Part shown: piece after piece, positions 702-16,431 of the stretch
Position numbering within the stretch: the first letter of the stretch is position 1
How the letters are laid out: each line of letters opens with the position of its first letter
Virus genome (UHGV): UHGV-0129084
Direction: 5' to 3' (one strand)
DNA: 53,693 bases
DNA from: a virus
Made by a program: the position numbers and the translations under genes
Notes under the pieces: generated by a model
The model's input: the letters and a program-made list of their open reading frames with translations, nothing else
Told to the model about the DNA's origin: nothing
Database searches by the model: none

Positions 702-1286
702 ATAAACTCCTGAATCAAGCGCCGCGCCGATTTTTTTCCTCGCGCGTGCGCACACGCGTGCGTGTTAATAATTATTAAAATAAACAAATTACTTCCCAGA
801 ACAGGTTTTAATAAAACCTGAACTGAACGAACGAAGTGAGTGAAGTTCACCTCGAACGAAGTGAGAGGTTGTCTTTTCAGGTAATACTCTCCCAGGGAGG
901 TGAGTACAAAATTTCCTCACCAACCTGGTCGTTTCATAACCTGAAAAGTTATGACCTAAGTCTACTGTCAGCTTAGGCTTGGGAAGTTATGGATGACAGC
1001 ACCCCAGAACCGAGATCTTCCCACACTTTATGAAGGGGAGTACTGGATTCAACCTCTCGAAACACCCCAGACTCGACAATCATAAAGTGACCCTTGTCTC
1101 CGCTCACTTTGGTTCCCCCTTCCCCGACACCTAAACGGCACCGGTTCTACGCTGGTAGTGAGCTTTTTTAAACCTGACGCCAGTGACGCTTACCCCCACC
1201 CATCAGGTCGAGTCTCCAGTCTACGACTGGAAACTATCAGATCTTAGCACTTACAATTCACTTTATGAATAGTTTGTACTTATCTA

Positions 1287-15116: not shown

Positions 15117-15391
15117 ATAACACCTTTGATACCGTGTGTTAGCTTTTGACCTTCTTTCAATCTGAACTCCGTATGCGCCGGGAAGGATCTGCGCCTCAAT
15201 ACGCCTTTTCTTGTTAACCTTCCAAGATAAAACGCTACGGGATTTCCTTGTGGCGGGTAGGGCTTGTGAAACATCACCGTCTGGCCTCGTTCAAGTCTTT
15301 TCATCGTGATGGCAAAGTCTCGAAAGCTCCCATAACGACTTTGCTTCACACAGCCTCCGAACTCTCCGCTTCGGTGAGGATTTCCTGACAC
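15113..15391 (-). CDS. Small basic hypothetical ORF (92 aa), doubtful
   Basis: Fills the SbcD/SbcC gap but overlaps the SbcD 3' end by 46 nt; may be spurious or use an internal start. Confidence 0.2.
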   Translation of the reverse strand: MSGNPHRSGEFGGCVKQSRYGSFRDFAITMKRLERGQTVMFHKPYPPQGNPVAFYLGRLTRKGVLRRRSFPAHTEFRLKEGQKLTHGIKGVI

Positions 15392-16431
15392 AAAATATCC
15401 AATTTGCTCAGATCAAATCCGCCGTCAGTATCGTGGACAATCTTGCAATAAGCAGATACCGACTCTCCCAGGCTATCGATTTTGCTGGTTTCAGTTGTGC
15501 TGGCTGTACCTTCCATCATTGATGACTTACGGATGAAGTTGCACACGACACCTTTTGCACCCATTGTTTTGAGGATGTTCTGGTACTTAATGCCTTCTTC
15601 ATCGTTCTCAATTACGGCGCGGAAACGCACGTAGTTGCCGCGAATTTGGTCATCAGCAACATCATCTTCCAGGTTAATGAATTTAGGCGCACTGGTTTCG
15701 TAGTGACTGAAACTGCCGTCCGGGTTTACGATCATGTAGCCAGCCAGAGATCCAACATCTCCCCAATTTTGATGAGTCAGTGCACCGACACTGATAACTC
15801 CAGGAATGACCTCTTTGTGGTTGTGGTAATGCCCACTAAGCACGAGACGAAAGCCGATATCCTTTAACTCCTGCGCATCGATACCGACGTCAGGCATTGT
15901 TGGAATGGCTTTGTTAATGGATGTATGGATAACAACGTCATGATTATCACCTTCTACGCTCTTACGTAATGCTTTCAGATCGCTGATAAGCTCCGCATGA
16001 TTGTTACGCCAGCTAATCAGGTGGACAGTCACATCACCAATTTTTATTGAGTGTGGGCGCTTGCCACATACGATTACCACGCCGATAGAACTCAGCGATG
16101 CTGCTGCGTTGGCGCTATATACTGAATCGTTGGTTTCAAGATCGTGATTACCGGCCAGCATTACTACTGTCAGATCAAGCTCGTTGATAATCCACTTGTA
16201 CGTTTCAGTTACGTAATGCAAAACAGAAGGGGACACAGTTCCTCGGACGTGAAATGTATCACCGGCAACCAACATGTACTTACAACCGGCCTTCTTCATG
16301 GCGATGGCTGCTTCTTTCGTTGCTTCCAACTGTATTTCAAGTCTGGAGTTAAGCCCCTCAGCGTTCGTCGTGGAGAACGCATCCCATTTGTGGTAGTGGC
16401 AGTCAGAAATGACGCCGTATGGCAAAGTCAT
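15346..16431 (-). CDS. SbcD/Mre11-like nuclease (T4 gp47-like)
   Basis: 361 aa; calcineurin-like phosphoesterase motifs LVAGDTFH, AGNHD, SGHYHNH; conserved initiation region upstream. Confidence 0.8.
   Translation of the reverse strand: MTLPYGVISDCHYHKWDAFSTTNAEGLNSRLEIQLEATKEAAIAMKKAGCKYMLVAGDTFHVRGTVSPSVLHYVTETYKWIINELDLTVVMLAGNHDLETNDSVYSANAAASLSSIGVVIVCGKRPHSIKIGDVTVHLISWRNNHAELISDLKALRKSVEGDNHDVVIHTSINKAIPTMPDVGIDAQELKDIGFRLVLSGHYHNHKEVIPGVISVGALTHQNWGDVGSLAGYMIVNPDGSFSHYETSAPKFINLEDDVADDQIRGNYVRFRAVIENDEEGIKYQNILKTMGAKGVVCNFIRKSSMMEGTASTTETSKIDSLGESVSAYCKIVHDTDGGFDLSKLDILCQEILTEAESSEAV

Follow-up and report, generated by a model that had tools for sequence, protein, structure and literature searches.

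Evidence for an independently transcribed structured noncoding RNA in SSU5-like phage-plasmids of Enterobacteriaceae

Bacterial noncoding RNAs of more than 400 nucleotides (nt) with a complex, covariation-backed fold are rare, and most of those that are understood are ribozymes or the cores of important ribonucleoproteins. Among the closest described systems, the large RNAs ROOL and GOLLD typically lie near tRNA genes, whereas the c4, CA and CI immunity RNAs, of about 70-80 nt, are cut out of longer precursors and work by way of short complementary sites in the adjacent operon; put elements and the lambda 6S transcript have lengths of roughly 70 and 190 nt, respectively. Here we consider the UHGV virus genome UHGV-0129084 (one strand of 53,693 nt, referred to as the window) and, within it, a noncoding gap between an RNase HI gene and a small hypothetical gene, for which an earlier reading of the letters (the original prediction) had proposed a structured noncoding RNA. 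The gap and its flanks match 12 phage records, including Salmonella phage SSU5 (88% identity) and Escherichia phage Cyrano (97.5%), and 689 plasmid records from Klebsiella, Escherichia, Enterobacter, Salmonella, Citrobacter, Cronobacter and Shigella, almost all of them non-mobilizable and, among those listed, mostly of 105-125 kb; the window (53.7 kb) is thus identified as an Escherichia-type SSU5-like phage-plasmid.

We consider it highly probable that the gap contains a real, independently transcribed structured noncoding RNA. The proposal is supported by the generic features of such a gene, namely a promoter of its own, covariation, a transcript (from published data, with predicted ends) and the lack of a conserved open reading frame (ORF), and none of the three findings named beforehand as speaking against it (no transcript, homologues without the region, a frameshifted remnant of a protein gene) was encountered. 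The gap itself spans 702-1286 (585 bp), because the minus-strand RNase HI gene (PF00075) starts at ATG 701-699, with GGAG at 707-710; the longest RNase H ORF (108-755) begins at GTG 755, and the conserved start is ATG 701. The boundary at 756 in the original prediction stems from that mechanical GTG start and does not hold, but its ORF-free stretch does: no ORF of at least 60 amino acids occurs on either strand of 756-1286, the longest having 50, 46 and 44. On the other flank lies a minus-strand gene of 76 amino acids (1287-1517 or 1287-1541; family phrog_5343). Judged from the sequence, the RNA gene would occupy the minus strand from about 1234 to about 777, some 455 nt, the same strand as both flanking genes. 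Its predicted features are given below in the direction of transcription, with counts from 62 distinct copies (the close set, taken from IMG/VR loci located through the two flanking proteins) and, for compensated pairs, from the wider comparison described further on.

1264-1269, minus strand: -35 hexamer (TTCATA) of the sigma-70 promoter; TTnnnn 17 bp upstream of the -10 in 62 of 62 copies
1241-1249, minus strand: extended -10 (TGC TAAGAT); TAnnAT in 62 of 62 copies, TGn extension in 49 of 62
1211-1235, minus strand: P1, the 5'-terminal hairpin; sequence varies by lineage, always paired, 5 of 8 pairs compensated
1102-1212, minus strand: 5' domain with P2 hairpin, P3 helix and P3a hairpin; match to model R3, 12 of 27 pairs compensated
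948-1101, minus strand: central domain with P4, P4a, P4b (GAGG loop), P5, P5a and P6; model R1, 23 of 45 pairs compensated
838-953, minus strand: 3' domain with P7, P7a, P7b and P8 hairpin (GAGG-UGAA-CUUC); model R2, 150.8 bits, 6 of 28 pairs compensated
828-840 and 853-865, minus strand: two copies of CUCACUUCGUUCG beside P8; exact 13-nt repeat, invariant in the 62 copies
776-826, minus strand: 3' end region with terminal hairpin (802-820), invariant YUCUGGGAA (789-801) and U-rich tail (777-788)

The layout of the promoter is preserved well beyond the close set. Its 17-bp spacing is fixed, though the spacer and the surrounding sequence vary between lineages, and relatives that are 68-82% identical retain the same arrangement around the -10 hexamer (1241-1246, minus strand, in the window), with TTTACC or TTTACG as the usual divergent -35 and mostly TGnTAACAT downstream of it (TAACAT with TGC in the 68%-identical lineages). 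Transcription is predicted to start at G1234 or A1235, 6-7 nt past the -10, where an invariant G opens the P1 hairpin; only one promoter-like site was seen on the plus strand (1228-1257), and it is directed away from the RNA. Several further observations concern the promoter's surroundings. A conserved motif lies just upstream of the -35 at 1272-1290, with TAAGTA invariant at 1277-1282 on the minus strand; Salmonella and Enterobacter lineages have it as a perfect palindrome of 14 bp, GGTAAGTACTTACC. It could serve either as an operator acting on the RNA promoter or as the signal that ends the small gene upstream. An AGATCT, which includes a Dam GATC site, overlaps the -10 (1241-1246) in the Escherichia lineage alone; a second AGATCT occurs at about 1012-1017 within the invariant internal loop of P5, and the element's own dam gene lies two genes upstream of the RNA gene.

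The hairpins on which the original prediction was built are largely where it placed them. GGTGAG and CTCACC pair at 899-904 and 916-921, and CCAGT..ACTGG at 1216-1230 belongs to an 11-bp stem (1211-1235); the first hairpin, CAGGTTTTA/AAAACCTG, is also present, at 802-820 rather than 804-826. The repeat is a 13-nt direct repeat on the minus strand (CTCACTTCGTTCG, 828-840 and 853-865), the second copy lying 1 nt off its described position, and is not strictly tandem, since the copies start 25 nt apart; GUUCG likewise occurs twice in divergent lineages. The GC-rich core was recovered as well, with a GC fraction of 0.49-0.57 over 1001-1250 against 0.31-0.36 in the adjoining spacers. The minus strand folds with a z-score of -5.6 (-185 kcal/mol), compared with -4.2 for the plus strand, and none of 100 shuffles was as stable.

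Covariation, proposed with the original prediction as a check, shows that the predicted helices are kept by compensatory changes across relatives. RNAalifold on the 62 close copies yields 130 pairs, 13-14 of them with double compensatory changes and 99.5% of cells paired, against 1-4 compensated pairs and 37-49% pairing in shifted controls. Because half of the molecule does not vary within this set, the comparison was extended to more distant copies, located by way of proteins homologous to the small one encoded upstream: those of Cronobacter sp. JZ38, Enterobacter sp. CP102 and metagenomes (L157 and L162, about 68% identical), L160 (82%) and Buttiauxella sp. WJP83 (L168). One Logan contig (SRR8137545, L161) was excluded because nearly every C is read as T, evidently from bisulfite-converted reads. 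The divergent copies were aligned with three covariance models (R1, R2 and R3) built on the close lineages. Overall, P1 included, 46 of 108 predicted pairs show compensatory double changes, with 0-4 per domain in the controls, and 95-97% of cells are paired versus 29-56% in shifted controls. By domain, pairing reaches 97.3% in the 5' domain (29-45% and 0-3 compensated pairs in shifted controls), 97.3% in the central domain (32-49% and 1-4) and 96.6% in the 3' domain (0-2 compensated pairs). The exchanges can be read directly in the raw sequences: GGGAAG/CUUCCC becomes GGAAGG/CCUUCC in P5, GCCUAAG/CUUAGGU becomes ACCGGGA/UCUCGGU or GCAGAGA/UCUCUGC in P6, and CUGG/CCAG becomes CCAGAC/GUCUGG in P4a. 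In divergent lineages the variable hairpins bear GAAA or UUCG tetraloops, including that of P3a, and P8 changes a G-U to a G-C pair and carries a GAAA loop; the terminal hairpin covaries too (pair 446/455). A helix drawn by RNAalifold between CGAGGUGA and UCACUUCG was replaced by the P8 hairpin GAGG-NGAA-CYUC in view of the divergent sequences, and an anti-Shine-Dalgarno mimic in P7b (CUCACCUCC) was discarded, being unconserved there.

These comparisons also fix the strand. The RNA is assigned to the minus strand because G-U pairs, which would be C-A mismatches on the other strand, constitute 10.9% of paired cells, and because the 3'-domain covariance model scores 140-151 bits on it against 30-34 bits on the opposite strand (33.9 bits for the overlapping R2 match at 868-967). 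They bear in turn on the idea that the conserved entity is a DNA-level element, such as a replication origin or a packaging or recombination site, whose hairpins are incidental. Very high DNA conservation would be expected of such an element, and a deletion end-point falls inside the region in Buttiauxella gaviniae; however, substitutions keep pairing, G-U pairs included, a positioned promoter and a discrete transcript exist, and no origin- or pac-type repeats occur beyond the single 13-mer pair. We regard a DNA-level role as very improbable.

The modelled fold comprises about a dozen helices, in which P2 and P3 form the 5' domain, P4, P5, P6 and P7 radiate from a multi-way junction, and P8 with the terminal hairpin makes up the 3' end; the structure past P8 is less uniform. 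Single-stranded segments are as striking as the helices: the 5' domain contains the invariant blocks GGGUGGrGG, UACCAGCG and GGGGArGGGrGAAyCAAAG, the central domain the near-invariant block UGGGAAGAUCUCGGUUCUGGGGUGCUGUCAUCCAUAACUUCCCA, and, of the unpaired positions in the core, 67% do not vary across the close set, which points to constraints beyond secondary structure. Such a core, together with the size, the multi-way junction and the GNRA/UNCG tetraloops, is typical of RNAs with tertiary structure and is what a catalytic or self-assembling RNA would show, whether a new ribozyme or a multimer-forming RNA like ROOL, GOLLD or OLE. We judge this improbable, as there is no similarity to ribozyme or large-RNA models and the covariation supports no cleavage site, substrate or tertiary contact. 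In being several hundred nt long, phage-borne, multi-helical with covariation support and devoid of a conserved ORF, and in having a context uninformative about function, the RNA does resemble ROOL (RF03087) and GOLLD. Unlike them, it is restricted to SSU5-type phage-plasmids of Enterobacteriaceae, is equipped with a conserved sigma-70 promoter of its own, lies in a DNA-metabolism module rather than beside tRNA genes, and matches neither them nor any other Rfam 15 model in sequence or structure.

Homologues not only retain the region, they conserve it more strongly than the flanking genes: across genera its core is 86-100% identical and those genes 65-80%. In the 62 copies, positions 821-1216 are 90-100% conserved per 20-column block, with invariant runs of 20-43 positions, whereas the flanking coding sequence and both spacer ends vary; compared with five other lineages, 801-1200 shows identities of 0.80-1.00 per 100-nt block against mostly 0.58-0.84 in the flanking genes. 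When the whole 53.7 kb is compared with a Klebsiella pneumoniae phage-plasmid, the highest score among 564 sliding segments of 400 bp belongs to the one beginning at 801 (90.8% versus a median of 75.3%). The RNA is found in 691 PLSDB plasmids, with a core 91-99% identical in 686 of them from at least eight genera, and in 232 of 5,426 complete E. coli genomes (4.3%), nearly always on a plasmid; no PLSDB or PGAP annotation exists at its locus in these plasmids and genomes. An exact 20-mer scan of GTDB species representatives returned Kluyvera (twice) and Buttiauxella only. The element was not found by nhmmer next to distant RNase H relatives of 38-49% identity in other phages (L072-L079), nor by a covariance-model search that covered these loci other than L077. 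In a further group (L163:3225-3939, also L164 and L165), a 70%-identical small upstream protein is followed by a 714-bp gap at the equivalent position, where a promoter-like site and a 5' hairpin accompany 470 nt that fold strongly (z = -5.75), with two RNase H genes next. This gap shows no detectable homology to the RNA by nhmmer, the three covariance models, Rfam or BLAST against plasmids, and no match to an Rfam 15 family; it may hold an analogue that is not homologous, or a relative that has diverged very far.

Evidence for a transcript comes from published RNA sequencing (RNA-seq) of the 97.5%-identical phage-plasmid Cyrano, in which an annotated 44-amino-acid ORF, CYRAN_81 (OV696614.1; window 973-1107), corresponds to the central 135 nt of the RNA element (Misson et al., PMC9928086 Table 1, S1 Table). 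In these data CYRAN_81 reaches about 117, compared with 9.5 and 8.4 for the flanking genes, expressed as fragments per kilobase per million mapped reads plus five (fpkm+5). The two replicates gave log2(fpkm+5) values of 6.8 and 6.9 in overnight LB (lysogeny broth) culture, 9.3 and 9.0 for bacteria alone at 1 h (B1), 6.9 and 6.9 at 6 h (B6), 9.0 and 8.2 in macrophages at 1 h, and 10.35 and 10.3 in macrophages at 6 h, against 2.6-5.8 for both flanking genes in all five conditions (PMC9928086). The central part of the RNA therefore stands 12- to 40-fold above either neighbour in the plasmid state, with an excess in every condition, which fits a promoter of its own and an efficient 3' end. CYRAN_43, for which a level 723-fold above background is reported in Cyrano, is absent from this window.

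Despite its annotation, CYRAN_81 is almost certainly not a protein: its frame is intact in 44 of the 62 copies and broken in 18, with indels of 1 and 2 nt interrupting it in the Klebsiella-type lineage and one other. No RNA-strand ORF of at least 12 amino acids is intact in all 62, and the sole ORF that is, of 14 amino acids, lies on the opposite strand within an invariant block; accordingly, a frameshifted protein-gene remnant is not borne out, and the conserved short ORF required of a type I toxin-antitoxin mRNA (hok/sok-like) or a small-protein gene was not found in these copies. Translational coupling of an upstream 50-amino-acid ORF to rnhA, through an ATGA overlap at 698-701, was dismissed because that frame is present in only 2 of 62. 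A product of CYRAN_81, another small protein or a remnant of one might still be suggested by the Cyrano annotation and by a 387-amino-acid ORF of Buttiauxella gaviniae in which the RNA sequence supplies the final 44 residues. That ORF, in a degraded remnant with a deletion of about 14 kb (L153:4780-6188, ATCC 51604 contig), results from a deletion fusing codon ~343 of an SbcD-like metallophosphoesterase gene (window homologue 15346-16431) to the middle of the RNA. Origin of the RNA from a gene 3' end was rejected on the same ground, with no internal repeat in the window, and we hold a protein-coding explanation to be scarcely credible.

At the other end of the RNA, the segment 776-826 is the probable site of termination or 3' end formation. 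Most lineages inspected have a short stem closing on CUGGG (conserved YUCUGGG), followed in most by a U-rich run, and the Klebsiella-type tail is not clearly U-rich; in the gene-level counts for Cyrano, RNA-seq falls more than 10-fold ahead of RNase H. Between this 3' end and the rnhA ribosome-binding site lies a perfectly alternating pyrimidine-purine tract of 24 nt (CGCGCGTGCGCACACGCGTGCGTG, 741-764), which is prone to Z-DNA or cruciform formation. It is kept across lineages and expanded in one of them (L140), and its CGCGCGAGrAAA part remains even with a different downstream gene.

An arrangement of this kind invites a cis-acting view, in which the RNA would decide transcription into the downstream genes by attenuation or by put-like modification of RNA polymerase as in HK022. 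Transcription would then come from the RNA promoter or an upstream early operon, and the abundant short RNA would be the terminated product, like the lambda PR'-tR' 6S RNA. The order of promoter, structured RNA, U-rich end and co-oriented gene agrees with this, as do the 75-nt spacer without a detectable promoter, the roughly 10-fold lower level of downstream genes in the plasmid state, and the retention of the spacer motif CGCGCGAG(G/A)AAA even where the downstream gene differs. The downstream gene, however, is not conserved. It encodes RNase H in the Escherichia, Salmonella and Klebsiella lineages, but in the Cronobacter- and Enterobacter-type relatives L157 and L162 (68% identical) an unrelated 200-amino-acid protein takes the place of RNase HI, and Buttiauxella p1WJP83 (L168/L306) keeps the RNA with no rnhA, a truncated start codon coming next and then Gabija-like genes (UvrD-helicase and AAA-ATPase) on the other strand. 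The RNA is therefore not simply the leader of RNase H, and the location between RNase H and the next gene given in the original prediction, correct here, does not extend across lineages and provides no functional definition.

Other expectations of an rnhA leader, attenuator or riboswitch fare no better: we found neither a conserved linkage to a regulated gene nor mutually exclusive terminator and antiterminator pairings that are both conserved. The obvious candidate, pairing of the P5 3' strand (CUUCCCA) with a 3' UGGGAAG, was rejected because it is lost in L157 (tail CUGGGUAUU) among the divergent lineages, whereas P5 itself covaries with three compensatory pairs. In addition, about 455 nt with invariant junctions far exceed the needs of known attenuators or put RNAs, and no read-through was seen across the five RNA-seq conditions. 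The RNA shares with lambda PR'-tR' 6S a constitutive short transcript in lysogens that ends before the downstream genes, and with HK022 put, which acts in cis on RNA polymerase, a folded RNA just past a promoter. It differs from both in being several times larger and far more conserved, in its unconserved downstream genes, and in having no known antiterminator partner or read-through. On balance, a cis-acting leader seems to us unlikely.

The neighbourhood of rnhA raises a further alternative, a replication RNA comparable to ColE1 RNA II or the T4/T7 origin transcripts, which would form a persistent RNA-DNA hybrid in the AT-rich stretch 762-800 and be processed by RNase H into a primer for lytic or plasmid replication. 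Like RNA II, this is a plasmid-borne, constitutive, highly folded noncoding RNA of about 0.5 kb with a promoter to match, for which RNase H is relevant and beyond whose 3' end the sequence is AT-rich, including the alternating purine-pyrimidine tract; it is G-rich (GGGUGGGGG, GGGGAAGGGGG), and it lies in a DNA-metabolism module, directly upstream of the RNase HI gene in most lineages. Several observations speak against it. Neither Rfam nor the promoter scan revealed an antisense RNA I gene over the primer 5' end, and no promoter-like site on the opposite strand reads into the RNA body; the replicon is of the Rep-protein type (IncFIB), with the rep gene about 18 kb from the RNA gene; three lineages keep the RNA without RNase H downstream; the AT-rich spacer is constant neither in length nor in sequence; neither iterons nor DnaA boxes were noticed; and, unlike RNA II, the transcript seems to terminate instead of continuing into an origin. 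A replication primer is consequently an improbable reading.

Searches against known families were negative throughout. None of the 4,227 Rfam 15 models, which include tmRNA, RNase P, 6S, group I and II introns, ROOL, GOLLD, RNAI and C4, matches at gathering score, so the Infernal/Rfam scan agrees with the earlier failure to recognise tmRNA, RNase P RNA or a group I intron by eye. At E <= 10, the best match in 600-1700 is an unrelated viral element with 21 bits against a threshold of 56, and the divergent copy in the 68%-identical L157 has no Rfam match at E <= 1. The P1/P7 c4, N15 CA and P4 CI immunity RNAs are similar in being noncoding, transcribed from a constitutive promoter and made by a plasmid-prophage in lysogeny, but the present RNA has about 455 nt and no Rfam C4 match, and complementary targets for the 13-mer repeat within the window were limited to chance-level matches, with no target of the immunity-RNA type. 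No description of the RNA was found in the searchable literature, which did not cover one possibly relevant 2026 preprint on phage-plasmid heteroresistance. Descriptively, the RNA falls among the orphan large structured RNAs of mobile elements, but into none of the families of that class.

As for the wider locus, the RNA gene sits within a long DNA-metabolism module in one orientation, consisting of sbcCD-like genes, nrdAB, thymidylate synthase, dihydrofolate reductase, a 3'-5' exonuclease, dam, the small gene, the gap and rnhA. With Pfam and PHROGs, a function could be assigned among the neighbouring genes only to RNase H and the Dam methyltransferase. The AlphaFold model of the upstream 76-amino-acid protein has three helices (predicted local distance difference test, pLDDT, 79) and no significant PDB neighbour, and a Rop-like identity was rejected on the basis of that model. 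The rnhA gene is annotated as frameshifted in pEC16-2 (NZ_CP074122.1). The only Rfam matches at gathering score in the whole window are three clustered tRNA genes (38239-38482, minus strand), one of them with a long variable arm.

Taken as a whole, the reading we favour, somewhat more than even in our estimation, is that of an autonomous, probably trans-acting structured noncoding RNA of a new family; its trans-acting, partner-binding part is weaker than the case for the RNA gene itself. A conserved promoter is available to host sigma-70 RNA polymerase (-35 at 1264-1269, 17-bp spacer, extended -10 at 1241-1249), with the predicted first nucleotide at the base of P1, and the RNA folds into helices held by compensatory substitutions, many of its unpaired nucleotides being invariant. 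The segment accumulates as a discrete transcript in the plasmid (lysogenic) state and would end at the short CUGGG-closing stem and U-rich tract, so that little transcription may enter the next gene. The stable folded RNA would then act in trans, its invariant loops and junctions contacting a conserved partner, most likely a phage-plasmid or enterobacterial host protein and possibly a nucleic acid, and would have a core rather than accessory role in the phage-plasmid, for instance in its maintenance, its replication or the control of lysis and lysogeny. Action in trans is suggested because sequence constraint reaches loops and junctions, because the RNA persists where the downstream gene is replaced, because the element belongs to the conserved core of the phage-plasmids rather than to variable cargo, and because no cis model survived the tests.

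Several points weigh against this reading. Trans action is deduced mainly by excluding cis models. The copies all stem from a single phage-plasmid group and share common descent, which means that compensatory cells are not independent events, and the domain alignments, being fitted to covariance models, lean towards structure; together, these two facts mean that the compensation counts overstate the number of independent events. The RNA-seq is a gene-level count over the central 135 nt, with predicted 5' and 3' ends and unconfirmed stranded counting, and a consensus terminator scan calls no canonical intrinsic terminator at the 3' end. Finally, the upstream 76-amino-acid gene is always adjacent to the RNA, a linkage that is partly an ascertainment effect since most divergent loci were found through that gene.

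For the biology of these elements, the finding offers a testable handle on phage-plasmid maintenance or regulation. SSU5/pHCM2-type phage-plasmids are common in clinical Escherichia, Klebsiella, Salmonella and Enterobacter, and some of them bear resistance genes, dfrA51 being one example; during carriage the RNA is expressed, at higher levels inside macrophages, yet is unannotated or mis-annotated as a 44-amino-acid protein. The coordinates, promoter, helix map, alignment and three working covariance models constitute a starting point for a new RNA family. More speculatively, and in our view unlikely though worth stating, the RNA may represent a new class of large bacterial RNA with a tertiary fold, either a ribozyme or the core of a ribonucleoprotein or homo-oligomeric particle, that is essential for the SSU5-type plasmid-prophage lifestyle. 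If so, it may act in the control of copy number, partition or induction, and this would explain why the RNA is the most constrained sequence of the element.

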